DNA of 64,000 bases. It comes from Escherichia coli 042. GTDB lineage: Bacteria; Pseudomonadota; Gammaproteobacteria; Enterobacterales; Enterobacteriaceae. Location of the stretch: assembly GCF_000027125.1 (NCBI RefSeq), contig NC_017626.1; one strand, given 5' to 3'. Every line of letters starts with the position of its first letter. Position 1 is the stretch's first letter. The notes under the pieces were generated by a model. That model was not told the DNA's origin. It did not search any database and was given only the letters and a program-made list of their open reading frames with translations. Positions 9,496 to 52,830 of this stretch are shown here, in pieces. The translations under genes were made by a program, and so were the position numbers.

Positions 9496-9669
9496 TAAAT
9501 TACCGTCTGGTTTGCAGGTGAGTCTTATTATTTATATCGGTATAGTGGCTGATATCTTACGAATTTCCTTAAGCCTCTATAAGCTGTAGTGATAAAACTC
9601 AGATTATTCCAGTGCGCCAACCGAATGATTTATCGGTCAGACTTTTTTTAACCAGATACAGAGACACAG

Positions 9670-14547: not shown

Positions 14548-14912
14548 ATTGAACTCCATAATCAGGTAATGCCGCGGGTGATGGATGATGTCGTAATATT
14601 GGGCACTCCCTTTCAGTTGCTCAATTATGTTATTTCACACTGCTATTGAGATAATTCACAAGTGTGCGCTCGCTCGCAAAATAAAATGGAATGATGAAAC
14701 TGGGTAATTCCTCGAAGAGAAAAATGCAATAAGTACAATTGCGCAACAAAAGTAAGATCTCTGTCATAAATCAAGAAATAAACCAAAAATCGTAATCGAA
14801 AGATAAAAATCTGTAATTGTTTTCCCCTGTTTAGTTGCTAAAAATTGGTTACGTTTATCGCGGTGATTGTTACTTATTAAAGCTGTCCTCTACCTACAGA
14901 AGGCCCTACACC
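14548..14912. promoter_or_regulatory. Divergent xylAB / xylFGH(R) promoter region (expected XylR and CRP sites)
   Basis: 365 bp AT-rich intergenic region between divergent xylA and xylF; individual sites not resolved by eye. Confidence 0.6.
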
Positions 14913-15905: not shown

Positions 15906-15982
15906 GCGTTACGCCCCGGCGAGGAGCGGGGGCGTGATTTCTCTCCATGCCGCGTGAATGAATTGGCTTAGGTGGAGTCGTT

Positions 15983-18683: not shown

Positions 18684-18760
18684 TTTTGATAAAAATTTTC
18701 TCAAAGCCGGTAACGTATTACCGGTTTTGAGTTTTTGCATGATTCAGCAGGAAAAGAACC

Positions 18761-19940
18761 ATGTTTACTAAACGTCACCGCATCACATTACTGTTCAATG
18801 CCAATAAAGCCTATGACCGGCAGGTAGTAGAAGGCGTAGGGGAATATTTACAGGCGTCACAATCGGAATGGGATATTTTCATTGAAGAATGATTTCCGCG
18901 CCCGCATTGATAAAATCAAGGACTGGTTGGGAGATGGCGTCATTGCCGACTTCGACGACAAACAGATCGAGCAAGCTCTGGCTGATGTCCACGTCCCTAT
19001 TGTTGGGGTTGGCGGCTCGTATCACCTTGCAGAAAGTTACCCACCCGTTCATTACATTGCCACCGATAACTATGCGCTGGTTGAAAGCGCATTTTTGCAT
19101 TTAAAAGAGAAAGGCGTTAACCGCTTTGCTTTTTATGGTCTTCCGGAATCAAGCGGCAAACGTTGGGCCACTGAACGCGAATATGCATTTCGTCAGCTTG
19201 TCGCCGAAGAAAAGTATCGCGGAGTGGTTTATCAGGGGTTAGAAACCGCGCCAGAGAACTGGCAACACGCGCAAAATCGGCTGGCAGACTGGCTACAAAC
19301 GCTGCCACCGCAAACCGGGATTATTGCCGTTACTGACGCCCGGGCGCGGCATATTCTGCAAGTATGTGAACATCTACACATTCCCGTACCGGAAAAATTA
19401 TGCGTGATTGGCATCGATAACGAAGAACTGACCCGCTATCTGTCGCGTGTCGCCCTTTCTTCGGTCGCTCAGGGCGCACGGCAAATGGGCTATCAGGCGG
19501 CAAAACTGTTGCATCGATTATTAGATAAAGAAGAAATGCCGCTACAGCGGATTTTGGTCCCACCAGTTCGCGTCATTGAACGGCGCTCAACAGATTACCG
19601 CTCGCTGACCGATCCCGCCGTTATTCAGGCCATGCATTACATTCGTAATCACGCCTGTAAAGGGATTAAAGTGGATCAGGTACTGGATGCGGTGGGCATA
19701 TCACGCTCCAATCTTGAGAAGCGTTTTAAAGAAGAGGTGGGTGAAACCATCCATGCCATGATTCATGCCGAGAAGCTGGAGAAAGCGCGCAGTCTGCTGA
19801 TTTCAACCACCTTGTCGATCAATGAGATATCGCAAATGTGCGGTTATCCATCGCTGCAATATTTCTACTCTGTTTTTAAAAAAGCATATGACACGACGCC
19901 AAAAGAGTATCGCGATGTAAATAGCGAGGTCATGTTGTAG
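18761..19940 (+). pseudogene. xylR: xylR (AraC-family xylose activator) interrupted by an apparent +1 frameshift after codon 43
   Basis: ATG 18761 opens MFTKRHRITLLFNANKAYDRQVVEGVGEYLQASQSEWDIFIEE then hits TGA at 18890-18892; the rest of XylR (DFRARIDKIKDWLGDGV... to ML*) continues in another frame from 18891 to 19940. Sequence reads gaagaaTgatttccgc where gaagaagatttccgc would restore the recalled protein. Confidence 0.7.
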
Positions 19941-19989
19941 CGATGATGAGAATTGTCGGCGTCACATCAGGTAACCCAGCACAACCACC

Positions 19990-20040
19990 TGATACGAGCA
20001 AAAGCCTTATCCGACTGACAAGTCGGATAAGGCTCGAGGA
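19990..20040. repeat. REP-like palindromic hairpin downstream of xylR
   Basis: Inverted repeat gccttatccgact / agtcggataaggc. Confidence 0.45.
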
Positions 20041-20047
20041 AATGCAA

Positions 20048-20872
20048 TTACATATGTGCCGCGATTAACCGTTGGTTATCCTGGTACATTGCGAACAGGT
20101 AGTTGTTATAACTCTTCCCTTTGGTCGAGTAGCCCTTCAGCTTGTGAATCATCGCTGTGGCAGTCACTTCCTGATCCGCTTTACGCAGCTGCGCACGCGA
20201 TTTACGGAACGAAGAGTAAGCCGGATGCGTATTCAGGTTAGTGACATAGGCGCTCACCGATTCTTTGACAGAACTAAACTGTGAGTACCCCTTCACTTTA
20301 CCCGGCGCATTAGTACAACGTCCTTTCATGCATTTCATGCCGAACAGATTGTTGTTGTTGCGCGCCAGCTTCGACGTTCCCCAACCGCTTTCTGCTGCAG
20401 CCATCGTCGCTACCATACTGGTGGGGATAATGTCTACGCGTTCAAGCAAGGTATTCCACGGGATTTTTCGCGTATTACCAGACCACTTCACCTTGTAGCG
20501 TTTGGCGATGTCTTTCAGACGCGCACGCTCAGCAGGTGACCATTGGCCCTGATACTGTTTTGAAATCAGCCAGTTACGTTCCGCAGTAATGGCCGCATTT
20601 TGGCTGGTAATGTAAGGCATTACAGTCCGGAGAAACGCCTTTTTCCTTGGTGTTCCGGAAGGGTATTTTCGCAAATCAGGAAGTGAACTACTCTTTGCAC
20701 TATTGCGAGAATACTCTTGTTTACTGCTTACCTGTTTATTACTAGCTTTAGTTAAGTGGGACTTTTGACTCGCTGTTGTTGTGTGCGTCTTCGCTAACAC
20801 CTCACTCGAAAACACCAGAGTGAGTAACATAAGAATCATCGCCCCATATCGTCGTATGGGAGTCAAAATCAT
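20048..20872 (-). CDS. bax: Bax protein (glucosaminidase-like, DUF)
   Basis: 274 aa MILTPIRRYGAMILMLLTLVFSSEVLA...; matches recalled Bax. Confidence 0.88.
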   Translation of the reverse strand: MILTPIRRYGAMILMLLTLVFSSEVLAKTHTTTASQKSHLTKASNKQVSSKQEYSRNSAKSSSLPDLRKYPSGTPRKKAFLRTVMPYITSQNAAITAERNWLISKQYQGQWSPAERARLKDIAKRYKVKWSGNTRKIPWNTLLERVDIIPTSMVATMAAAESGWGTSKLARNNNNLFGMKCMKGRCTNAPGKVKGYSQFSSVKESVSAYVTNLNTHPAYSSFRKSRAQLRKADQEVTATAMIHKLKGYSTKGKSYNNYLFAMYQDNQRLIAAHM

Positions 20873-21100
20873 CAGGTCTCCTGGTCGGATTTAATCATTC
20901 CAACACCTTATATTTTTTACAAATTTGAGAGTTGAATCTCAAATCATATCAAAAATAGCTGTCAAGAGCACCCCAAGGAATAGTCCAAATCTGAAACTAT
21001 GTCACGAGTTAACGATTCAGATTGGCGCTAAATCGCAGAAAATGTGGGGTTTATCGCAAAATTCAGCCGTTTTTTGCGCGCGATCGCTCACCCTTGCTTC

Positions 21101-21130
21101 TCATCCTGTGGACTTAACGCTCAGGGATGA
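21101..21130 (+). promoter_or_regulatory. Candidate MalT boxes upstream of malS
   Basis: GGATGA hexamers at 21125-21130 (forward) and 21101-21106 (reverse complement) ~60-90 bp upstream of malS ATG; malS is a MalT regulon member by established knowledge. Confidence 0.35.
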
Positions 21131-21191
21131 GTTTTGTCTGGCTTATCGCTGGCAAACTGTCTGAAATCGCAGCAATAAGGACTCATCCGCC

Positions 21192-23222
21192 ATGAAACTC
21201 GCCGCCTGTTTTCTGACACTCCTTCCTGGCTTCGCCGTTGCCGCCAGCTGGACTTCTCCGGGGTTTCCCGCCTTTAGCGAACAGGGGACGGGAACATTTG
21301 TCAGCCACGCACAGTTGCCCAAAGGTACGCGTCCACTAACGCTAAATTTTGACCAACAGTGCTGGCAGCCTGCGGATGCGATAAAACTCAATCAGATGCT
21401 TTCCCTGCAACCTTGTAGCAACACGCCACCTCAATGGCGATTGTTCAGGGACGGCGAATATACGCTGCAACTAGACACCCGCTCCGGTACACCAACATTG
21501 ATGATATCCATCCAGAACGCCGTCGAACCGGTAGCAAGCCTGGTCCGTGAATGCCCGAAATGGGATGGATTACCGCTCACACTGGATGTCAGCGCCACTT
21601 TTCCGGAGGGAGCCGCAGTCCGGGATTATTACAGCCAGCAAATTGCGATAGTGAAGAACGGTCAAATAACGTTACAACCCGCTGCCACCAGCAACGGTTT
21701 ACTCCTGCTGGAACGGGCAGAAACTGACACATCCGCCCCTTTCGACTGGCATAACGCCACGGTTTACTTTGTGCTGACAGATCGTTTCGAAAACGGCGAT
21801 CCCAGTAATGACCAGAGTTACGGACGTCATAAAGACGGTATGGCAGAAATTGGCACTTTTCACGGCGGCGATTTACGCGGCCTGACCAACAAATTGGATT
21901 ACCTCCAGCAGCTGGGCGTCAATGCTTTATGGATAAGTGCCCCATTTGAGCAAATTCACGGCTGGGTCGGCGGCGGTACAAAAGGCGATTTCCCGCATTA
22001 TGCCTACCACGGTTATTACACACAGGACTGGACGAATCTTGATGCCAATATGGGCAGTGAAGCCGATCTACGGACACTGGTTGATAGCGCGCATCAGCGC
22101 GGTATTCGTATTCTCTTTGATGTCGTGATGAACCACACCGGCTATGCCACACTGGCGGATATGCAGGAGTATCAGTTTGGCGCGTTATATCTTTCTGGTG
22201 ACGAAGTGAAAAAAACGTTGGGTGAACGCTGGAGCGACTGGAAACCTGCCGCCGGGCAAACCTGGCATAGCTTTAACGATTACATTAATTTCAGCGACAA
22301 AACAGGCTGGGATAAATGGTGGGGAAAAAACTGGATCAGAACCGATATCGGCGATTACGACAATCCTGGATTCGACGATCTCACTATGTCGCTGGCCTTT
22401 TTGCCGGATATCAAAACCGAATCAACGACCGCTTCTGGTCTGCCGGTGTTCTATAAAAACAAAACGGATACCCACGCTAAAGTCATCGACGGCTTTACCC
22501 CTCGCGATTACTTAACCCACTGGTTAAGTCAGTGGGTCCGCGACTATGGGATTGATGGTTTTCGGGTCGACACCGTCAAACATGTTGAGTTGCCCGCCTG
22601 GCAGCAACTGAAAACCGAAGCCAGCGCCGCGCTTCGCGAATGGAAAAAAGCTAACCCCGACAAAGCATTAGATGACAAACCTTTCTGGATGACCGGTGAA
22701 GCCTGGGGCCACGGCGTGATGCAAAGTGACTACTATCGCCACGGCTTCGATGCGATGATCAATTTCGATTATCAGGAGCAGGCGGCTAAAGCAGTCGATT
22801 GTCTGGCGCAGATGGATACGACCTGGCAGCAAATGGCGGAGAAATTGCAGGATTTCAACGTGTTGAGCTACCTCTCGTCGCATGATACCCGCCTGTTCCG
22901 TGAAGGGGGCGACAAAGCAGCAGAGTTATTATTATTAGCGCCAGGCGCGGTACAAATCTTTTATGGTGATGAATCCTCGCGTCCGTTCGGCCCCACCGGT
23001 TCGGATCCGCTGCAAGGTACACGTTCGGATATGAACTGGCAGGATGTTAGCGGTAAATCTGCCGCCAGCGTCGCGCACTGGCAGAAAATCAGCCAGTTCC
23101 GCGCCCGCCATCCCGCAATTGGCGCGGGCAAACAAACGACACTTTCGCTGAAGCAGGGCTACGGCTTTGTTCGTGAGCATGGCGACGATAAAGTGCTGGT
23201 CATCTGGGCTGGGCAACAGTGA
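21192..23222 (+). CDS. malS: Periplasmic alpha-amylase
   Basis: 676 aa with signal peptide MKLAACFLTLLPGFAVAA and GH13 motifs (GIRILFDVVMNHTG; GFRVDTVKH). Confidence 0.96.
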   Translation: MKLAACFLTLLPGFAVAASWTSPGFPAFSEQGTGTFVSHAQLPKGTRPLTLNFDQQCWQPADAIKLNQMLSLQPCSNTPPQWRLFRDGEYTLQLDTRSGTPTLMISIQNAVEPVASLVRECPKWDGLPLTLDVSATFPEGAAVRDYYSQQIAIVKNGQITLQPAATSNGLLLLERAETDTSAPFDWHNATVYFVLTDRFENGDPSNDQSYGRHKDGMAEIGTFHGGDLRGLTNKLDYLQQLGVNALWISAPFEQIHGWVGGGTKGDFPHYAYHGYYTQDWTNLDANMGSEADLRTLVDSAHQRGIRILFDVVMNHTGYATLADMQEYQFGALYLSGDEVKKTLGERWSDWKPAAGQTWHSFNDYINFSDKTGWDKWWGKNWIRTDIGDYDNPGFDDLTMSLAFLPDIKTESTTASGLPVFYKNKTDTHAKVIDGFTPRDYLTHWLSQWVRDYGIDGFRVDTVKHVELPAWQQLKTEASAALREWKKANPDKALDDKPFWMTGEAWGHGVMQSDYYRHGFDAMINFDYQEQAAKAVDCLAQMDTTWQQMAEKLQDFNVLSYLSSHDTRLFREGGDKAAELLLLAPGAVQIFYGDESSRPFGPTGSDPLQGTRSDMNWQDVSGKSAASVAHWQKISQFRARHPAIGAGKQTTLSLKQGYGFVREHGDDKVLVIWAGQQ

Positions 23223-23399
23223 CTTTTCCGGCTTCCCGTTCGTCAGTACCTCGGGAAGCCGCCAACCAGGATAAAATGTCAGCCCTAATCAGCGTTGCAG
23301 GATAAAGCACCGCTCACTCTTCAACAGACCGATTTGCACCCCAGCAAATGTAGCGTTATTGTTACCTTCCTTGCTACAGAGTTCGACAGATATCCCGCT

Positions 23400-24653
23400 A
23401 TGACATTCTCCCTTTTTGGTGACAAATTTACCCGCCACTCCGGCATTACGCTGCTGATGGAAGATCTGAACGACGGTTTACGCACGCCTGGCGCGATTAT
23501 GCTCGGCGGCGGTAATCCGGCGCAGATCCCGGAAATGCAGGACTACTTCCAGACGCTACTGACCGACATGCTGGAAAGTGGCAAAGCGACTGATGCACTG
23601 TGCAATTACGACGGTCCACAGGGGAAAACGGAGCTACTCACACTGCTTGCCGGAATGCTGCGCGAGAAGTTGGGTTGGGATATCGAACCACAGAATATTG
23701 CACTAACAAACGGCAGCCAGAGCGCGTTTTTCTACTTATTTAATCTGTTTGCCGGACGCCGTGCCGATGGTCGGGTCAAAAAAGTGCTGTTCCCGCTGGC
23801 ACCGGAATACATTGGCTACGCTGACGCCGGACTGGAAGAAGATCTGTTTGTCTCTGCGCGTCCGAATATTGAACTGCTGCCGGAAGGCCAGTTTAAATAC
23901 CACGTCGATTTTGAGCATCTGCATATTGGCGAAGAAACCGGGATGATTTGCGTCTCCCGGCCGACGAATCCAACAGGCAATGTGATTACTGACGAAGAGT
24001 TGCTGAAGCTTGACGCGCTGGCGAATCAACATGGCATTCCGCTGGTGATTGATAACGCTTATGGCGTCCCGTTCCCGGGTATCATCTTCAGCGAAGCGCG
24101 CCCGCTGTGGAATCCGAATATCGTACTGTGCATGAGTCTTTCCAAGCTGGGGCTACCTGGCTCCCGCTGCGGCATTATCATCGCCAATGAAAAAATCATC
24201 ACCGCCATCACCAATATGAACGGCATTATCAGCCTGGCACCTGGCGGTATTGGTCCGGCGATGATGTGTGAAATGATTAAGCGTAACGATCTGCTGCGCC
24301 TGTCTGAAACAGTCATCAAACCGTTTTACTACCAGCGTGTTCAGGAAACTATCGCTATCATTCGCCGCTATTTACCGGAAGATCGCTGCCTGATTCATAA
24401 ACCCGAAGGAGCCATTTTCCTCTGGCTATGGTTTAAGGATTTGCCAATTACGACCGAGCAGCTCTACCAGCGCCTGAAAGCACGGGGCGTGCTGATGGTG
24501 CCGGGGCACAACTTCTTCCCAGGGCTGGATAAACCGTGGCCACATACACATCAATGTATGCGCATGAACTACGTGCCGGAGCCGGAGAAAATTGAGGCGG
24601 GTGTGAAGATTCTGGCAGAAGAGATAGAAAGAGCCTGGGCTGAAAGTCACTAA
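23400..24653 (+). CDS. avtA: Valine--pyruvate aminotransferase
   Basis: 417 aa from MTFSLFGDKFTRHSGITLLMEDLNDG; track ORF over-extended by 35 codons. Confidence 0.95.
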   Translation: MTFSLFGDKFTRHSGITLLMEDLNDGLRTPGAIMLGGGNPAQIPEMQDYFQTLLTDMLESGKATDALCNYDGPQGKTELLTLLAGMLREKLGWDIEPQNIALTNGSQSAFFYLFNLFAGRRADGRVKKVLFPLAPEYIGYADAGLEEDLFVSARPNIELLPEGQFKYHVDFEHLHIGEETGMICVSRPTNPTGNVITDEELLKLDALANQHGIPLVIDNAYGVPFPGIIFSEARPLWNPNIVLCMSLSKLGLPGSRCGIIIANEKIITAITNMNGIISLAPGGIGPAMMCEMIKRNDLLRLSETVIKPFYYQRVQETIAIIRRYLPEDRCLIHKPEGAIFLWLWFKDLPITTEQLYQRLKARGVLMVPGHNFFPGLDKPWPHTHQCMRMNYVPEPEKIEAGVKILAEEIERAWAESH

Positions 24654-24658
24654 AAATT

Positions 24659-24772
24659 GCCTGATGCGCTACGCTTATCAGGCCTACATGATTTCTGCAA
24701 TATATTGAATTTGGTAGAATTTGTAGGCCGGATAAGGCGTTTTAGCCGCATCCGGCATAAACAAAGCGCACT
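24659..24772. repeat. REP/BIME cluster
   Basis: gcctgatgcgctacgcttatcaggcctaca and gtaggccggataaggcgtt...gccgcatccggca REP-type palindromes. Confidence 0.75.
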
Positions 24773-24804
24773 ATCCCTGCGTTGAGAAACGCCGGAAAAA
24801 CGTT

Positions 24805-25278
24805 TCAAACAGGCTGCTGCCGTAGCCGATGTCGCTGCACTTTCTCGACATCCATGCACTGCAACGCCTTTGTCGGGCAGGCTTCAACACAGGCCGGTCC
24901 CGTCGCCCGATGCCAGCACAGATCGCACTTAATCGCCCTCGCCTTTTTGCGCGAAGAAACGACCTCCATCGCACCAAACGGGCAAGCCAGCATACAGCTT
25001 TTACAGCCAATGCAACGTGATTGTTCAACGAAAATATGCCCATGTTCGCGGCTTATCGCGTCAACAGGGCAGACATTCGCGCACGGTGCATCTTCACACT
25101 GATGGCAGGCTACTGCCGTGGTCCAGCTGTGGTCTTTAATAACACGAATACGGGAAATAAACTCGTCTGGTGACAACGCAGCGCAATCCTGATTTTCCTG
25201 ATGCGACACTGCGCAAGCCACTTCACAGGTACGGCAACCGATACATTTCGTCGCATCTGCAATAATAAACCGGTTCAT
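24805..25278 (-). CDS. ysaA: 4Fe-4S ferredoxin-type protein YsaA
   Basis: ~157 aa with multiple CxxCxxCxxxCP iron-sulfur motifs; start Met uncertain by 2 codons. Confidence 0.88.
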   Translation of the reverse strand: MNRFIIADATKCIGCRTCEVACAVSHQENQDCAALSPDEFISRIRVIKDHSWTTAVACHQCEDAPCANVCPVDAISREHGHIFVEQSRCIGCKSCMLACPFGAMEVVSSRKKARAIKCDLCWHRATGPACVEACPTKALQCMDVEKVQRHRLRQQPV

Positions 25279-34510: not shown

Positions 34511-35326
34511 CTACGAATTGATATGTTCCTTGCTGTAACGCCGCTTCCACGCTGCTGGCGTTAAACCAGTGTGTTTGCGAAAAATCTGCCGGAAATAGCC
34601 AACGTCATTAAACCCGCACAACGCCGCCACTTCCGTGAGCGATCGCGCTTCGCTAATTAACAGCTTTTCGGCTTCGCGCACTCGCTGGCGATGGATTGCT
34701 TCTGTTAACGTCAGATGAAACACCCGCCGATAGACGCGCCCAAGATAATCGGCATTGCAGTACAGCTCGCGGGCTAAAAGCGCCGTGGAAAGCGGGCGAT
34801 GATATTGCGTGCGGATCAGTTTCTGCGCTTTCCAGGCAAGCGTGGTACCTGCGGCATCGGCCTGTTCATCAAGACGCGCGTCACGGGTGAGTTGCTGCAA
34901 AATCAGCAGCACAATAAACTCCAGCGCCGGAGTGCGCTGATGCTTTTCCTGTTCGCTTAAGAACTGGCGAAACAGGGCCACCAGCGCCTGCGGATCGGCA
35001 ACCTTCGTTTGTTGCGGCACGCTAAGATGAGTGAGCCAGCGCGGGTCGCTATCCGGCGCTTTAACCTCAAAATGCAGCCAGTAAAATTTGAGATCGGCGG
35101 GAAAATCCTCTACCCCAACATGCTGTCGGTTCGGCCAGAGTAATAAACTCTCTCCCGCATCGACCAGAAATATCCGCTCTTCTTCCTGAATCGCTAATCG
35201 ACCTTTTTCGACAAAGATAATTTCCCATGACTCCAGCCGCCTTGCCGGATGCCTCCCTACGCCACGGGAAATAAATAATCCACCATTTTGCACTTTAATC
35301 GGTAACGTCATGGATAATTCGAGCAT
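34511..35326 (-). CDS. AraC-family transcriptional regulator (N-terminal cupin-like sensor, C-terminal double HTH)
   Basis: 271 aa; C-terminal AraC signature region (...DYLGRVYRRVFHLTLTEAIHRQRVREAEKLL...FNDVGYFRQIFRKHTGLTPAAWKRR). Not part of the recalled K-12 gene order between sgbE and yiaT. Confidence 0.85.
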   Translation of the reverse strand: MLELSMTLPIKVQNGGLFISRGVGRHPARRLESWEIIFVEKGRLAIQEEERIFLVDAGESLLLWPNRQHVGVEDFPADLKFYWLHFEVKAPDSDPRWLTHLSVPQQTKVADPQALVALFRQFLSEQEKHQRTPALEFIVLLILQQLTRDARLDEQADAAGTTLAWKAQKLIRTQYHRPLSTALLARELYCNADYLGRVYRRVFHLTLTEAIHRQRVREAEKLLISEARSLTEVAALCGFNDVGYFRQIFRKHTGLTPAAWKRRYSKEHINS

Positions 35327-35348
35327 TGATATGTAATTTCCCGCTTAT

Positions 35349-35402
35349 TCATTAATGATTAAACACATTACCTTTTGATTATTAATCAAAAACATTAATT
35401 TC
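35349..35402. promoter_or_regulatory. Palindromic AT-rich sites in the divergent AraC / transporter promoter region
   Basis: TCATTAATGA (35349-35358) and TTGATTA-T-TAATCAA (35376-35390) palindromes plus further ATTAAT repeats; seen directly. Confidence 0.4.
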
Positions 35403-35551
35403 ACCTGATCCAATTCACACTTTTAAATTCAGGTCGGAATCGTCACCTTTTTTTACTCTTTTCTCGCCTTGTTGATATTCCCGTTCACGGCAGAATTAAT
35501 CATGTCATTGCAATAAAACTAAAAATTGCACCCTATTCACGAGGAATATCT

Positions 35552-36952
35552 ATGACCTCTACACCGATTACTACCGCTGATATCGCTAAAGGTAAAATTG
35601 ACGATGCGTTATCTGTACGGGAAAAAATAGGCTACGGCCTGGGTGACGCAGGCGGCACCGTAATAACTTGCCTGATCATGAACTTTCTCACCTTTTTCTA
35701 CACCGACGTTTTTGGCTTAACTCCGGCGCTGGTCGGCACGCTGTTTATTGCACTGCGCGTGTTTGATGCCATCTCCGACCCGGTGATGGGCGTCATTGCC
35801 GACCGGACGCAAAGTCACTGGGGGCGCTTTCGTCCGTGGCAGTTATGGATTGCCATTCCCATCGGCATTATCGGCATCCTGACGTTCACCGTGCCAGATG
35901 CCAGCATGGGAGTAAAAATCGCCTGGGCGTTCGGCACTTACCTGCTCCTTTCAGTCGGTTATACCGCCATCAACGTGCCGTACTGCGCGCTGATCAACAC
36001 CATGACCACCCGCCACAATGAAGTGATCTCCTGCCAGTCCTGGCGATTCGTTCTCTGCGGTGTAGCGGGATTTCTGGTTTCGGTAGGCTTACCGTGGATG
36101 GTGGATCTCTTCGGTCAGGGTAATGCCGCGCGCGGCTATCAACTGGGCGTCGGCGTGCTGTGCGCCATCGCTGTGGTGATGTTCCTGTGCTGTTTCTTCT
36201 GGGTTCGTGAACGGGTACCACTCTCCACAATGGGGAAATTTACCCTGCGCGAACATCTTGCCGGGCTGCGAAACAACGACCAACTGCTGCTGATGCTGGT
36301 CATGTCTTTCCTGCTGATTAACGTCTTTAATATTCGCGGCGGTGGGTATATGTACTTCATTACCTACGTCTTACAAGGCAGTACGGGCTACACGTCGCTG
36401 TTCTTCACTATGGTCACCTTCGCCTCCATTATCGGCTCGGTGATTGTCAGCCCGTTAACGCGACGTTTCGATACCGTCAAAATTTATTACTACACCAACC
36501 TGCTCCTCGCTTCACTGGCGGTGTTGATGTGGTTCCTGCCCTCCGGCCCGGCTTATCAAACGCTGTGGCTGGCGGTGATCCTCGGTAATGGCGTGATTCT
36601 TGGCTTCACATTGCCACTGCACTTCTCATTGATGGCCTTTGCCGATGACTACGGCGAGTGGAAAACCCGCGTACGTTCTTCCGGCATGAACTTCGCCTTC
36701 AATCTGTTTTTCATCAAACTGGCCTGGGCCTCCAGCGCCGGGATCATCAGCCTGCTGTTTATTTTTGTCGCCTACCAGCCAGGCGTAGAAAACCAGACCG
36801 CCAGTTCGCTTGGCGGGATCGCGGCGATGGAAACATTGCTGCCTGCGCTGTTCCACCTGCTGCTGGCGATGGCGATCCGCTTTTGCAAACTCAATAACCC
36901 TATGATGTCACGCATTGCTAGCGACCTGCGTCAGCGTCATGTACAGCCTTAA
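35552..36952 (+). CDS. GPH-family (glycoside-pentoside-hexuronide) sugar:cation symporter
   Basis: 466 aa, 12-TM MFS-like; N-terminal GYGLGD...G and [18 protein letters not shown] motifs typical of MelB/YicJ/YihO-type GPH transporters. Confidence 0.85.
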
Positions 36953-36962
36953 GGAGCACAAG

Positions 36963-38933
36963 ATGAACATTTCGGAAGTCGATCTGCATAAACTGACGGT
37001 CAGCGATCCGTTCCTCGGTCAGTACCAACAACTGGTCCGCGACGTGGTGATTCCTTATCAGTGGGATGCCTTGAACGATCGTATCCCAGAAGCGGAACCC
37101 AGCCATGCGATTGAAAACTTTCGCATTGCCGCAGGACTGCAAGACGGTGAATTTTACGGGATGGTGTTTCAGGACAGCGACGTCGCCAAATGGCTGGAAG
37201 CGGTAGCCTGGTCGCTGTGCCAGAAGCCGGATGCCGAACTGGAAAAAACCGCTGACGAGGTAATCGAACTGGTCGCTTCCGCCCAGTGCGAAGATGGCTA
37301 TCTCAATACTTACTTTACGGTAAAAGCGCCCGAAGAACGCTGGAGCAATCTGGCGGAGTGTCATGAACTTTACTGCGCCGGTCATCTGATTGAAGCCGGA
37401 GTCGCCTTCTTCCAGGCCACGGGCAAGCGGCGCTTGCTGGAAGTGGTTTGCCGTCTGGCCGATCATATCGACAGCGTATTTGGTCCAGGTGAAAGTAAGT
37501 TACACGGTTATCCTGGTCACCCGGAAATTGAACTGGCACTAATGCGCCTGTATGAAGTGACCGAAGAGCCGCGCTACCTGGCGCTGGCGAACTATTTTGT
37601 CGAACAGCGTGGTGCGCAACCGCACTATTACGACCAGGAATATGAAAAGCGCGGGCAGACCTCGCACTGGCACACCTACGGCCCGGCGTGGATGGTGAAA
37701 GATAAAGCCTACAGCCAGGCGCATTTACCCATCGCACAGCAACAAACCGCCATCGGACATGCAGTACGCTTTGTATATCTGATGACTGGCGTCGCACATC
37801 TGGCGCGTTTAAGTCACGATGAAAGCAAGCGTCAGGATTGCCTGCGGCTGTGGAACAATATGGCCCAGCGTCAGTTATATATTACCGGCGGCATTGGCTC
37901 ACAAAGCAGCGGCGAAGCGTTCAGCAGCGATTACGATCTGCCGAATGACACGGTATACGCCGAAAGCTGTGCTTCCATCGGCCTGATGATGTTCGCCCGG
38001 CGAATGCTGGAAATGGAAGGCGACAGTCAATATGCCGATGTGATGGAGCGCGCACTGTACAACACCGTGCTCGGCGGCATGGCGCTGGATGGCAAACATT
38101 TCTTCTATGTGAATCCGCTGGAAGTGCATCCAAAAACGTTAAAATTCAACCATATCTACGATCACGTTAAGCCGATCCGCCAGCGTTGGTTTGGTTGCGC
38201 TTGTTGTCCGCCAAATATCGCCCGCGTGCTAACCTCGATTGGTCATTATCTCTACACGCCGCGTGAAGATGCGTTGTATATCAACATCTACGCAGGAAAC
38301 AGCATGGAAGTGCCGGTAGAAAATGGCACGCTGCGTCTGCGGGTTAGCGGAAACTATCCGTGGCAGGAGCAGGTGACGATTGCGGTTGAATCGCCCCAGC
38401 CGGTGCGTCATACGCTGGCTTTACGTCTGCCGGACTGGTGCACACAGCCGCAGATCATATTGAATGGGGAAGAGGTCGGGCAGGATATTCGTAAAGGGTA
38501 TTTGCACATTACCCGCGAATGGCAGGAGGGCGATACGCTGAATCTGACTTTGCCGATGCCGGTACGCCGCGTTTACGGTAACCCTCAGGTGCGTCACGTC
38601 GCCGGAAAAGTGGCGATTCAGCGCGGCCCGCTGGTGTATTGCCTGGAACAGGCCGACAACGGCGAGTCACTGCATAACCTGTGGCTGCCCGCCGATGCGC
38701 CATTTACGACATTTGAAGGCAAGGGATTGTTCCGCCATAAGATCTTAATCCAGGCTCCGGGTTACCGGTATGAACAGAGCAATCCAGAGCAGCAACCGCT
38801 GTGGCATTACGACAGCGCGCCAGCCAAACGCCAGCCGCAAACCCTGACCTTTATCCCGTGGTTTAGCTGGGCCAACCGGGGTGAAGGCGAAATGCGGATC
38901 TGGGTGAATGAGGAAAAGCATTGCCATCCGTAG
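36963..38933 (+). CDS. Glycoside hydrolase family 127 (DUF1680) protein, putative beta-L-arabinofuranosidase-like
   Basis: 656 aa from ATG 36963 with AAGGAG SD 7 bp upstream; Cys-rich segment WFGCACCPPNIARV resembles the recalled zinc/cysteine active-site region of HypBA1-type GH127 enzymes. Family assignment from memory. Confidence 0.7.
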   Translation: MNISEVDLHKLTVSDPFLGQYQQLVRDVVIPYQWDALNDRIPEAEPSHAIENFRIAAGLQDGEFYGMVFQDSDVAKWLEAVAWSLCQKPDAELEKTADEVIELVASAQCEDGYLNTYFTVKAPEERWSNLAECHELYCAGHLIEAGVAFFQATGKRRLLEVVCRLADHIDSVFGPGESKLHGYPGHPEIELALMRLYEVTEEPRYLALANYFVEQRGAQPHYYDQEYEKRGQTSHWHTYGPAWMVKDKAYSQAHLPIAQQQTAIGHAVRFVYLMTGVAHLARLSHDESKRQDCLRLWNNMAQRQLYITGGIGSQSSGEAFSSDYDLPNDTVYAESCASIGLMMFARRMLEMEGDSQYADVMERALYNTVLGGMALDGKHFFYVNPLEVHPKTLKFNHIYDHVKPIRQRWFGCACCPPNIARVLTSIGHYLYTPREDALYINIYAGNSMEVPVENGTLRLRVSGNYPWQEQVTIAVESPQPVRHTLALRLPDWCTQPQIILNGEEVGQDIRKGYLHITREWQEGDTLNLTLPMPVRRVYGNPQVRHVAGKVAIQRGPLVYCLEQADNGESLHNLWLPADAPFTTFEGKGLFRHKILIQAPGYRYEQSNPEQQPLWHYDSAPAKRQPQTLTFIPWFSWANRGEGEMRIWVNEEKHCHP

Positions 38934-39926: not shown

Positions 39927-40901
39927 ATGACAAAATTACAACTTAAGTACCGGGAGTTAAAAATTATCTCGGTAATCGCTGCCAGTGAAAATATCAGCCA
40001 TGCCGCGACTGTACTTGGCATCGCACAGGCCAACGTCAGCAAATATCTTGCTGATTTTGAATCAAAAGTGGGTTTAAAAGTTTTTGACCGAACCACCCGA
40101 CAACTGATGCTCACACCTTTTGGCACCGCGCTATTACCGTACATCAACGACATGCTGGACAGAAACGAGCAGCTTAATAATTTTATTGCAGATTATAAGC
40201 ATGAGAAACGTGGTCGGGTCACCATCTACGCCCCAACCGGCATAATTACCTATTTATCCAAACATGTAATCGATAAAATTAAAGATATCGGTGATATCAC
40301 CTTATCGCTAAAAACCTGCAATCTTGAGCGTAATGCCTTTTATGAAGGCGTCGAATTTCCTGATGATTGTGATGTTTTAATCAGCTATGCCCCACCAAAA
40401 GATGAATCGCTGGTTGCCAGTTTTATTACCCAATATGCCGTAACCGCTTATGCCAGCCAGCGCTATCTTGAGAAACATCCCATTAGCCGTCCTGACGAAC
40501 TCGAACATCACTCCTGTATTTTGATCGACTCGATGATGATCGACGACGCGAATATCTGGCGCTTCAACGTCGCCGGGAGTAAAGAGGTGCGGGATTATCG
40601 CGTGAAGGGAAATGACGTTTGCGACAACACGCAATCGGCGCTGGAGCTGGCACGAAATCACCTGGGGATTGTGTTTGCGCCAGACAAAAGTGTGCAGAGC
40701 GATCTGCAAGACGGCACGCTGGTGCCCTGCTTTCAGCAACCCTATGAATGGTGGCTGGATCTGGTGGCTATCTTCCGTAAACGGGAATACCAGCCCTGGC
40801 GGGTCCAGTATGTGCTGGATGAAATGCTGCGTGAAATTCGCCACCAGCTTGCTCAGTCGCAGCAACTGCGGCCTGAACAAGCGGCGGAAAGCGAAGATTA
40901 A
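39927..40901 (+). CDS. yiaU: LysR-family transcriptional regulator YiaU
   Basis: 324 aa, N-terminal LysR HTH (…[23 protein letters not shown]…). Confidence 0.9.
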
Positions 40902-42034
40902 TGATCGAGATAAAGGTAATGCACCCAACTGGTCATGCGTAACAGCACTTTGCGCATCACCGAGACATGGCTGAAATGATCAGAGTAAACCGCCACCTGG
41001 GCGTAAATACCGTCTGGTAAAGCGCTCAAATCAGTGTGCTCATCCAGTTCAATGGTCGCGATAACGCCATCTGAACCCGGCGCTGTGTTTAACGTCTGTA
41101 AGGTGCCGGTCGACTGATAAGCTCCGCCGGGAACGGCTGGACTAATGGCTGCCAGCTTACCGCTGAATACCTTACCTGGCAGAGCATTAAACACCACTTC
41201 CGCATCGTCGCCAGGAGCCAGTCGCAGCAAGGAGTTCTGACGGAACTGCGCCACGATTTGTCGTTTCTGATCGGGTATAAACACCATCACCGGACGTAGC
41301 GGCAGCGACGCGGCATAGGTACCCGGACGAATCAGGACCTGAGTCACATAACCATCGCTCGGCGCACGCACTATCGTCTGCTCAAGGTTATATTTTGCTT
41401 CCGCGAGCTGCGCTTTCAGGCTGGCGATTTGAGAATGTTCACCCAACACCAGGCTATCCAGCTGGCTCTGGATCTGTTTTTGTTCCGCTGCCGATGACTT
41501 TACGGAGGCTTCCTGCGCCAGATAATTTTGCCGCGCCACATCGATATCGCGTTCTGAAAACGGGTTTACTTTCGCCTGGCTGCCGCGTGCGTAACGCTGA
41601 TACTCTTTAGCGAATTTATCCCGCGTGGCCTTTGCCTGCTGAGTATTCGCCACCATCTCATCTAACTCTGCGCCCAACGCCCGCTGTTTATGTTCTGCGG
41701 TAACGATATCCGCCATCAGCCGATCCACCCGCGCCTGATAACGCGTCGGGTCCAGTCGAAATAGCACTTCACCTTTTTTAATCAGCGTATTTTTCTTATC
41801 CGTCACTTCAATCACCACACCAGTCACCTGTGGGACAACAGGAATAGAAATAACCGCTTTTTGCGCTTTAAAGGTATACGGATGGTTATAGTTCATTAAC
41901 AGAATTAGACCGCTGACAATAAATATTCCACCCAGGGCCGCTGTGGGAATGGTCCATTTATTTACGGGAATTTTGAAGATCTTAAACATTGCCCATGCAA
42001 AAGCCACATAGGTCAAAATAATCAGTAAATCCAT
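40898..42034 (-). CDS. yiaV: HlyD-family membrane fusion-like protein YiaV
   Basis: 378 aa, N-terminal TM helix, coiled-coil, barrel-sandwich hybrid; overlaps yiaU stop by 4 bp (convergent). Confidence 0.9.
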
Positions 42035-42039
42035 AAGTA

Positions 42040-42363
42040 TTACTCGGCAGAAGAGGATTTGATGTCGGCGAGCTGTTTCTCCAGCCCGGCAATGCGCTGT
42101 TGCAGTTGCATAACGGATGAATCATGGCTTTGCATTCCCCATCCCCGCTCCGGGCGGTAAAGCGTGGCCCAAATCCACAAAAACGGCCAGATAACATGTA
42201 ACGTAAAAAGACTCACCCAACCAGCAACATGAATGGCGTCGGCATGAGGATGATTACGTTTTTTAGCAATCAGGTAGGGAATATCATGTAAAATAATAAT
42301 CCCATAAAATATCACCAGAAATACAAAAATAAGCACTCCCAGCGCAAAATAGTCCAGGAACAT
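42040..42363 (-). CDS. yiaW: Small inner membrane protein YiaW (DUF3302)
   Basis: 107 aa from [30 protein letters not shown]; track ORF over-extended by 10 codons. Confidence 0.88.
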
Positions 42364-44553: not shown

Positions 44554-45849
44554 CTACAGCGGGTAATGTGCGACGTACACGGCTTGCTGGTCATTAATTT
44601 TCTTCTCTTGCGCAAACCCTTCTTTAACAATCGTCCGTAAATCAGCTCGAGCCGTATTATCAGAGACGCCCAGGCTCGCGCTAATTTCAGCAACTGTGTA
44701 CTCTTTCCCCGGATTGGCGAGCATCACATTCAGGAGCGTTACCTGGCGAGGATTCAAGCGTTTAAGCACGCCAGAGCTAAACAGCACACTATCGAATTTT
44801 GCGCTTCGTTGCATAATTTCATCAATATGCTGCTGCCAGTTTTGCAAAGCACGTTTAATGACACCCGCCTGATAATCAAGGAAATAAGTCAGATCCATAC
44901 CATCTGATTCAGTGTACTGGCAGCTGGCGGCATATTTGACCGGTGCAGCATGAAGCAAACGGCTGATGGAAATATATTTAAAGACATCGTAGCCCGATTT
45001 CAGCATATACCAGTAAAACAGTGCCCGACTGGTGCGCCCGTTGCCATCGCGAAATGGATGTTCATGGGCCAGCATAAAATGCAGAATGCAGGCACGGATT
45101 AACGGGTGAATATACCCTTCATGGCTGTTTAACCACTGGCAAACTTTTTCCAGCCGTTCCAGCAACAATGCCGCAGCGGGCGGTTGGTGCACAATATTGC
45201 CGTCATAGTCGGCGATCACAACATCATCTGTTTCACGAAATTCTCCCGGACGATATTTCGCGTCATTGATTCCACCCATACCAATGGCATGTAACTGGCG
45301 AATAAGCGCAGTCGTCAGCGGTTCTGCGAGTAAGTGCGGAATTTCCGCCATCAGCCGGGCATTTCCCGCAATCATATGCTCGTCTTCAGTGCGTGGCGAC
45401 CGCCCTGTTTCCAGCATTTTTCTCGCCACCAGCGTTGTAGTATTCGCACCTTCCAGCTGGGAGCTGGTGATCGGCTCTTCCAGGCGTAACTGGCTTAACT
45501 CGGCTCCGGCCCCGCGTAACCGTTCAGTCTGATCTTTCAGCGCCAGCGCGGTAGCACGTTTGTCGACAAGCTCGCACGCTTCTGCAATCACCGGGGTAAT
45601 GTTGAATCCGGCCTGTTCACCCGCTTCATTGCAATAATTAATTCGTTGGATCGCCGCGTTGCGCGCCAGACGGGTAAGCGTCCACGCCACATCGACGTTT
45701 TCTCCTTTTTTGATGCGGTACTGCAACTCATCAAAAGGTAGATAACGTCCTTTTTCATCGGTAACCCGGTTAAAGCGCAGGTGGGCCTGGAGTTCCTCAC
45801 CCGATAAGTGTGATAAAGGAATAAGTCCGGGAGGTGATTTGATAGCCAT
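44554..45849 (-). CDS. Fic-family protein (class II, internal inhibitory helix) with C-terminal wHTH-like domain
   Basis: 431 aa; canonical Fic active-site motif [12 protein letters not shown]; upstream inhibitory-type motif SSQLEG ([S/T]xxxE[G/N]); C-terminal segment [39 protein letters not shown] resembles a winged HTH. Not in the recalled K-12 aldB-yiaY gene order. Confidence 0.85.
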
Positions 45850-47319: not shown

Positions 47320-49164
47320 TTATTTTTCCGGAAATAATAATGCGTCGCGCAATAAATGATCATTTCCACGACGACGCGTAAAGCCAATGCGGTCAAAATA
47401 TTCCAGAATTTGAATTGCCAGTTTTCGACCAACACCTAAGCGATCGCGGAAATCCGCCGCGCAGGTTGAACCACACTCCTGATCGAGATCGCGGATCATA
47501 TTGGCAAACTCGACAATCCGATCGTTACGGTAATAACGATCTTTAACGATCGCGGTAATAATTCCTTGCTGCGCCGCCTGGCGTAGCGTCAGGCGCATTG
47601 CCTGCTCGTCGGTTCCCGTCTCTTTTGCCAGATCACGCACCCACCACGGCTCGTCACCAAACAGCGGCTCTGCTTTTTGCCAGATGGCCTGCTGCTCTTC
47701 GCTGAAGCCCGCTTTATGATCCGGCAGATGCAGCCAACCGTGATGACTGAGGATGTCGCCGCTTTCGCGCATCTTTTCAATCAGCAACAGTACCAGCGCT
47801 TCATCTTCCATTGGCAACGCCATACGTCGCAGACGTTCGCGCCCAGGACCAGGTTCATCGCGATGTTGCTCATGATAAGTCGCTAATGTGTCGAGAATTT
47901 TCCGCTGCCAGCGGGCGGCAACCGGCGCATTCAACAAGCTATAACCAGCCTGAATATAGCCAGGCTGTTGCAATAGTTCGCGCATCCCTTCGCCGTTGAG
48001 CTGCCGTGCCCAGGCGAAATCGGCAAGGTTAACCGCGCCGCGTTCCAGATGAACAGATAACGCATCGGCATCGCTCTGCGCTCGTGCAAGAGACGCCAGC
48101 CATTGCAGATATTCCGGCTTACGCTTACCGCGACGCGGCGGGTTAAGCATTACCACACGCGCCCCCGCCAGCGTGTTGCGGGCCGAGATATCGCGCAACA
48201 CTAAGCGATCGTTATCCGCCAGCCACAGCGGCGTGTCGAACACCAGCTCGGCAAGGCTATCTTCCAGCAGCGAAACGCGTCCCGTAACGTGGCTGGCGGC
48301 GTGGTGAATATGCAGCGGCTGCCACTGGGTCAGCGGCGTATGGGTTTGAAGCTCGACAATCACCCGCGTGAACGGCTCTGGCGGCACATCGGCAAGCAGC
48401 CAGTCGCCACGGTTAATCTGCTCTTTTTCCGCATCACCCGCGATGTTAAGCGCGATACGCTGCCCGGCATGGGCGGTTTCTGTTGGCTGGTTTTGTGCAT
48501 GCAGCGCACGCACGCGCATCGGTTTATTTACACCAGTCAGCCATAGTGAATCGCCTACCTTCACTTCCCCGCTTAACGCCGTACCGGTGACGACCAGCCC
48601 GGCACCTTTTACGGTAAATGCACGGTCGATCGCGAGGCGGAAACTATGTTGGCTGGCGTGTTCACGTTCTGGTAACTGAAGCAAATGCTCGCGCAGGGCA
48701 TCAATTCCCCGACCTTCGGTTGCTGCGGTGATAAACAGTTTTGCCTCAGCAAAACCGTATTCCCGCAGCACCTCCTTTACCTGGCGTTCAACCTCATCAA
48801 CACGCGCTTCGTCCACGCGATCGGCTTTGGTCAGCGCCACTGTCAGCATCGGGTTACCGGTCAGCTGCAAAATCGCCAGATGCTCACGGGTCTGTGCCAT
48901 CACGCCGTCATCGCACGCCACCACCAACAGCGCGTGATCGATACCACCAACGCCAGCCAGCATGTTGGAAAGAAACTTTTCATGACCGGGTACGTCGATA
49001 AAACCAGGCACACGGCCATCCGGCTGCGGCCAGTAGGCATAGCCGAGATCGATGGTCATGCCGCGCTTTTTTTCTTCCGGCAGACGGTCGGCATTTACGC
49101 CAGTAATCGCCTGCAATAAGGTTGTTTTGCCGTGGTCAACGTGTCCGGCAGTCGCAATAATCAT
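47320..49164 (-). CDS. selB: Selenocysteine-specific elongation factor
   Basis: 614 aa, N-terminal GTPase motifs ([18 protein letters not shown]) and C-terminal wHTH SECIS-binding region. Confidence 0.96.
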
Positions 49165-50552
49165 TTCAACAACATCTCCAAAAACCGTTGCTCATCTTCA
49201 AGGCAGCGTAAATCCAGCCACAATCGTCCGTCATAAATACGACCAATCACCGGCACTGGCAATTCACGCCAGCGGGCGGCTAATGACTCAAGGTGGCTAC
49301 CGCGTCCATCATGGGGTGTAAACGTTAATGCGGCGCTCGGCAGGCGATCAACCGGCAGCGAACCACTGCCAATCTGCGAAAGACATGGCATAACCTGTAC
49401 CGCAAACTCCGCGCCGTAATGTGCGGCAAGGGGAGCCTGTAAACGTTGTGCCTGGATTTGAATGACCTCTGCGCTGCGGGTAAGCAGGCGCAGGGTCGGT
49501 AATTTTTCACTCAGAGCTTCAGGGTGTAAATAAAGACGCAACGTGGCTTCCAGCGCCGCGAGGGTCATTTTATCCGCGCGTAATGCACGCTTCAGCGGGT
49601 GGCTTTGCAGGCGGGCGATCATCTCTTTTTTACCAACGATAATCCCTGCCTGCGGCCCGCCTAACAACTTGTCGCCGGAGAAACTCACCAGACTGACGCC
49701 CGCCGCAATCAACTCCTGCGGCATTGGCTCTTTCGGCAAACCGTACTGGCTAAGATCGACCAGCGAGCCACTGCCTAAATCAGTCACCACGGGAATATCC
49801 AGTTCTTTGCCGAGCGCCACCAGTTCCGCTTCATCTATCGCTTTGGTGAATCCCTGAATGCTGTAGTTACTGGTATGTACTTTCATCAACAGTGCGGTAT
49901 TTTCATTCACCGCCTGACGATAATCATTCGCGTGCGTGCGGTTGGTGGTCCCTACTTCGTGTAGGGTGCAGCCTGCCTGACGCATGACATCAGGAATACG
50001 AAACGCGCCGCCAATCTCCACCAGTTCGCCGCGAGAAACCACCACCTCTTTCCCGCTAGCAGTGGCCGCCAACATCAATAACACCGCCGCCGCATTGTTA
50101 TTAACGATACAGGCATCTTCCGCCCCCGTAATACGGCACAGCAGCTGCGCCAGCGCCCGATCGCGATGTCCGCGTCCGGCGTCGTCCAGATCGTACTCGA
50201 GGGTCACTGGCGAACGCATAGCCTGCGCAACGGCTTCCACCGCGGCTTCTGCCTGTAAAGCTCGCCCAAGATTGGTATGCAGCACGGTTCCCGTCAGGTT
50301 GATCACCGGACGCAGCGCACTCTGCGCCTCCTTCGTCAGTCGGGCATCGACTTCTTGCGCCCAGTTTTCACACCATGCGGGCAGCGTCTGGCTGTCACGA
50401 ATCACTTCTCGCGCTTCGTCAAGCATCTGACGCAGCAATTCCACCACGCGGGTGTGACCATAAGTATCACGCAAAGAAAGGAAGGAGCTATCGCGCAATA
50501 AGCGATCAATAGCCGGAAGTTGACTATAGAGGGAACGCGTTTCGGTTGTCAT
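49161..50552 (-). CDS. selA: L-seryl-tRNA(Sec) selenium transferase
   Basis: 463 aa [21 protein letters not shown]...; overlaps selB start by 4 bp. Confidence 0.96.
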
Positions 50553-50649: not shown

Positions 50650-51258
50650 TCAAGCCTTTGGCGGTTCGGTGCGAGCAAAACTTTCGCGGCTAAACAGGTT
50701 TTCGACCAGTTTGACTAAGTGTGGGCGGTCGACACACCAGCCTGGCGCAACGCGGCGGAAATTGAGATATCCGACGGCACAGGCAATGGCGATAGTCGCC
50801 AGATTGACCGTATCGGTTTTGAGCGTGCCATCGACCAGATATCCTTCCAGCACATCCAGACTGCGGTTGATTTTCTCCCGCTGGCGTAACAATTCATCTT
50901 CAGACTGCTGCGCCGCCGGACGCGCCTGTTCACGCACCGATACCAGCCCGGCATCCATAATGCCATCCGCCAGCGCCTCAATTTTGCGCACCCGCAACGA
51001 CTCCAGCGGATCGCGCGGCAACATCGCCGGAGCGACATTCATTAATTCAATATATTCAGCGATGATCGGCGAATCAAACCAACATTCGCCCTCTTCGGTC
51101 ACCAGCACCGGCACTTTCCCTAACGGGTTAAATTGCGCCACGCCGTTGTCCGCGTTATAGGGCAGTTCATTAATAAATTCGAAAGTTATGCCCTTTTCTA
51201 ACAACAGAATAGAAAGTTTGCGTACAAACGGGCTGGTGTAGCTACCGACGAGTTTCAT
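50650..51258 (-). CDS. yibF: Glutathione S-transferase-like protein YibF
   Basis: 202 aa [28 protein letters not shown]... GST N-terminal thioredoxin fold. Confidence 0.92.
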
Positions 51259-51328
51259 GCCGAGTCCTTTGTGCGAGGAAAAATATCAGTATGGCTCAGG
51301 CTCACGCAAAACACAGGTGATATAAGTC

Positions 51329-52465
51329 TCAATGATCCAAATAAAGATAATGCATCCAACTGGTCATTCTTAGCAGCACCTTCCGCATCACCGAAACATG
51401 GCTGAAATGGTCGGAGTAAACTGCCACCTGGGCGTAAATGCCGTCGGGTAAGGCATCGATATCATCGTTAGGGTCCAGTTCAATGGTTCCCAGCACACCG
51501 TCCGTGCCGGGCACGACCGTTAATGATTGCAATACCCCCTGCGCCTGATAAGAACCGCCTGGCACGACAGGTAAAATACTGGTCAGTTTGCCGTGGAACA
51601 CCTGCCCAGGTAGCGCGTTAAACACCACTTCCGCATCATCGCCGGGTTTCAGACGTAACAGCGAGTTTTGCCGAAATTGGGCGACAATTTGCCGTTTTTG
51701 CTCGGGGATGAAAACCATCACCGGACGCAACGGCAAGGCAGCTGCGTATGTACCTGGGCGGATCAGTACCTGAGTAACGTAGCCATTGCTCGGCGCGCGA
51801 ATGACAGTCTGCTCAAGGTTATATTTTGCTTCAGTAAGTTGCGCTCTTAAGCTCACAATCTGCGACTGCTCGCCGTTAACCATACTGTCGAGCTGGCTCT
51901 GGATCTGCGCCTGCTCCGCCACCGAGCCTTTCACCAGCGCATCCTGCGCGAGGAAATTTTGCCGCGCATCGTCGATGTCACGTTCCGAGAACGGATTCAC
52001 CGCCGCCTGGCTGCCTTTCAGGTAACGTTGATAATTTTTAAACAGACGGTCGCGCTCCGCTGAAACCTGGGTGGTGTTGGCCTGCGCTTCAGTGAGCTGC
52101 GCGCGCAGCGTCTTTATATTATGCGTCGCCGTCATCAGGTCAGCCTGAAGTCTGTCAACTCGCGCCTGGTAACGGACCGGGTCGAGTTTAAAAAGCACCT
52201 CGCCCTTTTGAATAAGCTGATTATTTTTGTCAGTGACTTCAGTAACAATTCCCGTCACCTGTGGCGTGATGGGGATCGCTATCACTGCCTTTTGCGCGGT
52301 AAAAGTGTAAGGGTGATTGTAGTTCATCAACAAAATCAAACCACTCACCAGAAACACGCCTCCCAGCGCCGCCGTCGCCAGCGTCCACTGATTTACCGGA
52401 ATGCGGAAGATTTTAAAGACCGCCCACGCCAGCGCCACGTAAGTTAAAACGATCAATAGATCCAT
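51329..52465 (-). CDS. yibH: HlyD-family membrane fusion-like protein YibH (paralogue of YiaV)
   Basis: 378 aa; by eye roughly three quarters identical to the YiaV ORF at 40898-42034, identical termini (MDLLI... / ...HYLYLDH). Confidence 0.9.
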
Positions 52466-52467: not shown

Positions 52468-52830
52468 TTAGATCTCCGGGAACGTGGAATAGTCAGTCTT
52501 TTTCTCGGCGGCGAGTTGATGCTCCAGCCGGGAAATTCGGTCAGAAAGTGCGGCGATTTCCGGGTCAGTCGCTTTCTCCTGCGACGTAACATGTGACTGC
52601 ATACCCCAGCCACGCTCCGGTTGATAGAGCGTCGCCCAGATCCACAGAAACGGCCAGATAACATGCAGAGTAAACAGGCTCACCCAGCCCGCCGTATGAA
52701 TAGCGTCGGCATGGGGATGGTTGCGCTTTTTGGCAATCAGATAAGGGATGTCATGTATCGCGATGATTCCATAAAAAATCACCAGAAAGACGAAGATCAG
52801 CACTCCCAACGCGAAATAGTTTAGAAACAT
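52468..52830 (-). CDS. yibI: Small inner membrane protein YibI (DUF3302; paralogue of YiaW)
   Basis: 120 aa [30 protein letters not shown]...; 2-bp gap to yibH. Confidence 0.9.

Follow-up and report, generated by a model that had tools for sequence, protein, structure and literature searches.

The 70 bp between yibH and yibF in the stretch of DNA analyzed here (the window, 64 kb long) are, with a probability that we put at roughly 90%, the native and never-interrupted yibH-yibF region, and thus the Rhs-free allele of the rhsA locus. The two genes adjoin directly, with zero genes between them, at the position where K-12 carries the RhsA element. The comparison with K-12, the distribution of the compact junction among complete E. 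coli genomes, and the spacers of other enterobacterial genera carry this reading, and are taken up in that order below.

The yibH-yibF junction in the window and across E. coli

The junction lies within a minus-strand run comprising selA (49161-50552), yibF (50650-51258), the 70-bp spacer (51259-51328), yibH (51329-52465) and yibI (52468-52830), after which mtlA follows on the plus strand. YibF is a glutathione S-transferase-like protein of 202 aa, YibH an HlyD-family membrane-fusion protein of 378 aa, and YibI a DUF3302 protein that is the upstream partner of YibH. These assignments are taken from the ORF list, in which yibF and yibH are the largest ORFs near the site, and from the RefSeq annotation of E. 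coli strain 135, which is collinear with the window at 99.15% identity across the full 64 kb and has the same coordinates and names. Both sources agree exactly with the initial annotation, which had counted 70 bp between the start of yibF at 51258 and the stop of yibH at 51329, and the strain 135 annotation likewise has no gene in this interval. The YibF and YibH proteins are each 100% identical in amino-acid sequence to their K-12 counterparts.

The equivalent interval of K-12 MG1655 (NC_000913), from the yibF start to the yibH stop, was checked for a 70-bp spacer, which had been named beforehand as the outcome that would contradict an Rhs-free reading; it is instead 8,287 bp long. It holds eight annotated features (rhsA, yibA, yibJ', yibG, yibS', yibW', yibV and yibU'), in keeping with the statement in the initial annotation that rhsA and its downstream ORFs sit between yibF and yibH in that strain. 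When the two sequences are compared base by base outward from each gene, homology continues to window position 51295 and picks up again at 51328, one base ahead of the yibH stop codon. The breakpoints accordingly fall at 51295/51296 and 51327/51328. The 37 bp upstream of the yibF ATG (51259-51295, minus strand) are identical to K-12 at 37/37 positions, and the K-12 Rhs element starts directly beyond them. Between the breakpoints lie 8,249 bp in K-12 (8,287 - 37 - 1) but a mere 32-mer in the window (51296-51327; ACTTATATCACCTGTGTTTTGCGTGAGCCTGA on the minus strand). The difference is therefore a replacement and no clean insertion. Chance is of no concern for this result because it is a direct structural comparison. 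The 32-mer is not found in the K-12 locus with up to 3 mismatches permitted, and its identity to the end of the K-12 element is 9/32.

The K-12 element rhsA-yibA-yibJ'-yibG-yibS'-yibW'-yibV-yibU' thus occupies exactly this intergenic position and is wholly absent from the window. The 8,249-bp block gives zero blastn matches in the 64 kb, and RhsA, YibA and the Citrobacter VgrG/Rhs pair give zero tblastn matches anywhere in it. Nor does the window contain the arrangement typical of an RhsA-type element, in which a large G+C-rich core ORF with YD repeats carries a variable toxin tip and is followed by an immunity gene. The initial inference that the strain has no Rhs insertion at this site is borne out both by the junction alignment and by this lack of Rhs sequence.

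A census of 5,426 complete E. coli genomes with a 79-nt probe for the compact junction (window 51272-51350) found that junction in 1,520 (28%), among them UTI89, ST131, ATCC 25922, IAI39, an ST69 strain and O145:H28. The probe matches at 99% or better, like the window's own sequence, in 379 of the 1,520, and the B2-type strains listed differ at 2/79 probe positions. The left junction of the K-12 type was found in 3,749 genomes (69%), against 3,448 for the right one, so that about 300 of the genomes with Rhs depart from the K-12 form at the end nearest yibH. The Rhs-bearing lineage includes K-12, B and O157:H7 and makes up ~69% of sequenced E. coli. A third state, an autotransporter-fimbrial island, is found in 143 genomes (2.6%), and the empty, Rhs and autotransporter-island states together cover 5,412 of the 5,426. 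It is on the junction comparison and this census that we describe the minus-strand interval 51259-51328 as the empty form of the rhsA locus.

The presence/absence polymorphism of Rhs at this site is already known, from 1990 and from surveys since, and our finding is in this respect correct but ordinary. Feulner and colleagues reportedly compared K-12 with an Rhs-free isolate in 1990, obtaining 8,249 bp against 32 bp, and are said to have called the 32 bp 'unrelated'. The locus and both sizes reported for this Rhs-free ('Rhs0') allele agree with the window. A text search of the literature found no paper quoting the 32-bp result. The yibF/yibH site has been described as rhs locus 10, occupied in many, not all, E. 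coli and inferred to postdate the split from B2-like pathogenic strains (Jackson et al. 2009, BMC Genomics 10:584; PMC2935791). Our census agrees with that survey on locus 10. The survey does not include the sequence of the empty site, the terminator and promoter anatomy described below, or the non-Rhs islands that occupy the site.

Ancestry and anatomy of the 70-bp spacer

To place the compact junction in a wider context we took one genome for each GTDB species, located yibF by a degenerate pattern for the N-terminus of its product, and then searched the resulting loci by tblastn with SelA, YibF, YibH and YibI. The order yibI-yibH-yibF-selA with a yibH-yibF gap of 61-106 bp is found at 38 loci, which come from Citrobacter, Kluyvera, Enterobacter, Lelliottia, Leclercia, Raoultella, Klebsiella, Atlantibacter, Pseudocitrobacter, Pluralibacter and the representatives of three non-K-12 Escherichia species. 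Spacers of the same 70-bp length that are identical to the window at 66-67/70 positions occur in Escherichia sp. E1V33 (66/70) and in two divergent 'E. coli' representatives, and colinear 70-bp spacers identical at 52-53/70 occur in Citrobacter werkmanii (53/70) and Citrobacter sp. On2M. The 32-bp part by itself is identical at 28-30/32 positions in three other GTDB Escherichia species representatives and at 19-20/32 in Citrobacter. The compact order across genera and the colinearity of the 32 bp imply that the compact junction is ancestral rather than a deletion scar, and that the K-12 state is derived. Judged from these sequences, the strain is rightly said to lack the insertion and wrongly said to have deleted it. 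Enterobacteria ancestrally have the gene order yibI-yibH-yibF-selA-selB, which runs here on the minus strand.

In the longer spacers of ~90 bp (Enterobacter, Klebsiella, Raoultella, Leclercia and some Citrobacter) a strong hairpin and a T-run of the form GGCAGGnn-loop-nnCCTGCC-TTTT stand right after the yibH stop codon, with a fold z of about -6 relative to shuffled sequences. The 70-bp form of Escherichia and C. werkmanii retains only the 3' arm and T-run. In the window this is ATCACCTGTGTTTTG (51307-51321, minus strand), at the place where the full hairpins of Citrobacter sp. Awk 4 and NCU1, Klebsiella and Enterobacter have the colinear ...CATCACCTGCCTTTTG, and we regard it as the relic of an ancestral yibH intrinsic terminator whose 5' arm is missing. 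Consistent with this assignment, the 70-bp spacer folds no better than its shuffles (z = 0.45), and no rho-independent terminator for yibH (a G+C-rich hairpin with a U-run) is called within it.

Closer to yibF, the minus-strand hexamer CATACT (51288-51293), ~30 nt upstream of the ATG and resembling a -10 element, is identical in 40/40 aligned spacers from many enterobacterial genera, amid otherwise variable intergenic sequence. A consensus promoter scan of the spacer gave no full sigma-70 site, the -35 being poor, and we consider CATACT a candidate -10 element for yibF, coupled to a weak -35. AAGGA (51265-51269, minus strand), 6 nt before the ATG, would serve as the Shine-Dalgarno sequence of yibF, and AAGGA or AGGAG is kept at this position across the spacer alignment. 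A SELEX paper and a BglJ-RcsB paper mention rhsA/yibF in passing only, with nothing on a yibF promoter. A conserved RNA structure behind the invariant CCATACT was also entertained, given an apparent pairing with the Shine-Dalgarno region in single-sequence folds; it was dropped when RNAalifold returned zero consensus pairs on the 40 spacers and an Rfam search of the spacer zero matches.

Read from yibH along the minus strand, the spacer would thus consist of the stop codon, a decayed terminator (3' arm and T-run), CATACT, a leader of ~20 nt containing AAGGA, and the yibF ATG. Transcription of yibF would be expected from the CATACT promoter and, since no terminator survives between the genes, probably also by read-through from yibIH. 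Conservation of the hexamer and the missing terminator are the features that point to this functional arrangement. In the K-12-type lineage, a composite of 8,249 bp stands in place of the 32 bp, with the yibH stop codon on one side and the yibF promoter region on the other. It combines the rhsA core and its toxin tip with an immunity-type gene and orphan tips, and read-through from yibH into yibF would no longer be possible in Rhs-bearing strains.

An empty site could in principle also be produced from an occupied one by excision or deletion of a resident Rhs element in situ, leaving the 32 bp as a scar. Rhs elements are substrates for recombination and hot spots of rearrangement, and a 10-mer, TCCAAATAAA, which the 3' end of yibH shares with the K-12 element at a point 44 nt in from the element's left end, might have served such a deletion. 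However, a deletion between the two copies would yield a sequence other than that observed, and a search of 51100-51500 for direct or inverted repeats returned nothing apart from chance short matches. The 32 bp resemble the end of the K-12 element far less than they resemble the Rhs-free spacers of Citrobacter and other Escherichia, with which they are colinear. With neither an att-type or target-site duplication nor an element-derived residue at the junction, and with the outgroup spacers as they are, we regard excision as effectively refuted and give it only a very small probability. The chance that the junction is an assembly artefact, in which a repeat-rich Rhs element collapsed out of the assembly, is smaller still. 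Rhs cores are multi-copy and short-read assemblers often break there, but the same junction runs uninterrupted through all 1,520 of the complete genomes that carry it, and a collapse would not give rise to 32 bp that other species conserve.

Less improbable, though still unlikely, is secondary loss by allelic replacement, in which an RhsA-bearing ancestor regained the compact allele by recombination in yibF/selA and yibH/yibI with Rhs-free donor DNA. Closely related pathogens do show both states, O145:H28 having compact and O157:H7 Rhs junctions. Over the 24 kb around the site, moreover, the strains that match best, second only to strain 135, carry Rhs and are 97-98% identical. The window junction is 100% identical to the 379-genome subset and differs from the B2-type allele at 2/79 positions. 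Against this, positive evidence for such an exchange in this strain is absent: raised divergence by the junction, as a sign of imported flanks, was looked for and none was seen, the density of mismatches to K-12 (5 and 9 in the first 500 bp on either side) not being unusual. Even if such a replacement took place, what the strain now carries would be the ancestral empty allele all the same, and its description would be unchanged. The strain may hold the empty allele through vertical inheritance or have regained it through recombination.

Islands at the site and the end of the K-12 element

Islands recur in the yibH-yibF spacer in several genera. The island of strain DS566 (extracted locus 14660-25088) is ~10.4 kb long and encodes an S6-family (SPATE-like) autotransporter peptidase, a chaperone-usher fimbrial operon and an HTH protein. 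Like the RhsA element it separates yibF from yibH; one end abuts the yibH stop codon, and it carries its own diverged spacer allele. Its gene content is unrelated to that of the RhsA element, and it is not found in the window. In strain KE41 both yibF and the autotransporter gene are truncated at the island junction. Outside Escherichia, yibF and yibH are 7,408 bp apart in Citrobacter sp. Res13 (extracted locus 262-6660), a space filled by a vgrG-rhs pair; an rhs gene is divergent from yibF in Citrobacter youngae ATCC 29220 (extracted locus 6707-10432), and vgrG abuts yibF in Pseudocitrobacter faecalis (extracted locus 6-914). All of these Rhs or vgrG-rhs islands are divergent from yibF, with the position and orientation of K-12 rhsA, and their Rhs proteins, that of C. 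youngae included, share 66-68% amino-acid identity with RhsA.

The end of the K-12 element that faces yibF bears on how such islands are bounded. Read on the yibF-coding strand, the 8,249-bp block ends ...CTGCCCTTTTTCCCATCACCAG / GCCATACT, the slash marking the boundary. Within the block a CTGCC(N0-2)TTTT motif ends 12 nt upstream of CCATACT. The 3' arm of the terminator stands in the same register (11-13 nt) in 24 other loci, its K-12 counterpart being CTGCCCTTTTT. The motif has a background frequency of 3.6-3.9e-5 per nt, which makes the probability of its falling in register by chance roughly 1e-4, and it is also kept beside yibF in the Rhs-occupied Citrobacter loci. Its register and its retention in those loci argue that the terminal ~25 nt of the K-12 block are probably native spacer, in the form of a deeply diverged allele. 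The homology of CTGCCCTTTTT is demonstrated by this register test, BLASTN-short being insufficient: a BLASTN-short comparison of the K-12 yibF-rhsA intergenic region with all fetched loci returned only the shared 37-41 nt. The flanks outside the diverged K-12 allele are ordinary. We also looked for a relic of a yibH-like 3' end in the left end of the K-12 element, by three-frame translation and permissive tblastn; both were null, and the 10-mer TCCAAATAAA is treated as a chance match.

The K-12 spacer allele is closest to GCTGCTTTTTTTCACCGCCAGGCCATACT of E. albertii. In E. albertii NBRC 107761 (extracted locus 89-838) a same-strand ORF of 230 aa, and not yibH, lies upstream of yibF, and it is the short spacer between this ORF and yibF that gives the closest match to the Rhs-linked K-12 allele. 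A different arrangement is seen in O157:H7 TR01 (NZ_CP033605.1; extracted locus 4885-4960 and 11365-11400), where the 32-bp empty-site sequence is present on both sides of the Rhs element. The left join of TR01 falls at the 10-mer TCCAAATAAA and has an N, and at the right GC and the 32-mer stand in place of the 35 bp found at the K-12 right end. This two-sided arrangement is unique among the 5,426 genomes and points either to an artefact of assembly or patching or to a rare recombinant.

In every island-bearing haplotype, the 25-30 nt that separate the island from the invariant candidate -10 of yibF form a deeply diverged allele of their own, which suggests that the occupied haplotypes have spread between lineages by homologous recombination in the flanks, repeated insertion being the alternative. 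We tentatively propose, at slightly under even odds, that the old yibH terminator is a landing site shared across genera by at least three kinds of island, that occupied haplotypes spread by such recombination and not by site-specific insertion, and that the 'unrelated' 32 bp are allelic to the terminal ~25 bp of the K-12 'element'. The three kinds are RhsA-type elements in E. coli, vgrG-rhs or rhs elements in Citrobacter youngae, Citrobacter sp. Res13 and Pseudocitrobacter, and the autotransporter-fimbrial island of 143 E. coli genomes. Our view of the 32 bp differs from the 1990 description as reported, in that the window's 32 bp represent the ancestral spacer, part of which has a diverged counterpart at the K-12 end in CTGCCCTTTTT. 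The survival of the old terminator arm, in diverged form, at that end may be a new observation. Mildly new, too, are the ancestry of the 32 bp together with their partial allelism to the K-12 element end, and the hosting of different islands by the yibH terminator region in different lineages.

Wider differences from K-12 and biological meaning

The window differs from K-12 at several other places. Between aldB and yiaY it has a gene for a Fic-family protein (44554-45849) where K-12 has an intergenic gap of 164 bp; DS566 and KE41 have this gene as well. Between sgbE/araD and yiaT lies a cluster encoding an AraC-family regulator, an MFS transporter and a GH127 glycoside hydrolase (34511-38933). 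At the position of this three-gene cluster nothing but the pseudogene remnants ysaC and ysaD is left in K-12, which so represents the deleted form. Beyond yibL (58673-64000) the window has a DUF3251 gene and a gene for a very large YadA-like trimeric autotransporter adhesin, which is cut by the window end and contains internal diverged repeats of ~200 nt around 60790-61970; K-12 lacks both genes and passes from yibL directly to lldP. An indel in the REP-like mtlA-mtlD intergenic region (~55290) breaks the register of the K-12 alignment and accounts for a jump in mismatches from ~3965 bp past the yibH junction. The window also contains yiaV-yiaW (40898-42363), an HlyD-family and DUF3302 pair paralogous to yibH-yibI, with the same architecture and on the same strand 9 kb away.

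Rhs elements were discovered through duplications of glyS that arise by recombination between rhsA and rhsB. In this strain, which is without rhsA, rhsA-rhsB recombination duplicating the glyS region as in K-12 is impossible; glyS and glyQ themselves lie within the window, at 6105-9095.

The strain is not K-12-like at the rhsA locus and belongs to the 28% of sequenced E. coli that are without this Rhs toxin/immunity cassette, which bears on Rhs-mediated interbacterial competition. What the present analysis adds is the precise anatomy of the empty site, and the recognition that the same 70-bp spacer has repeatedly hosted different islands.
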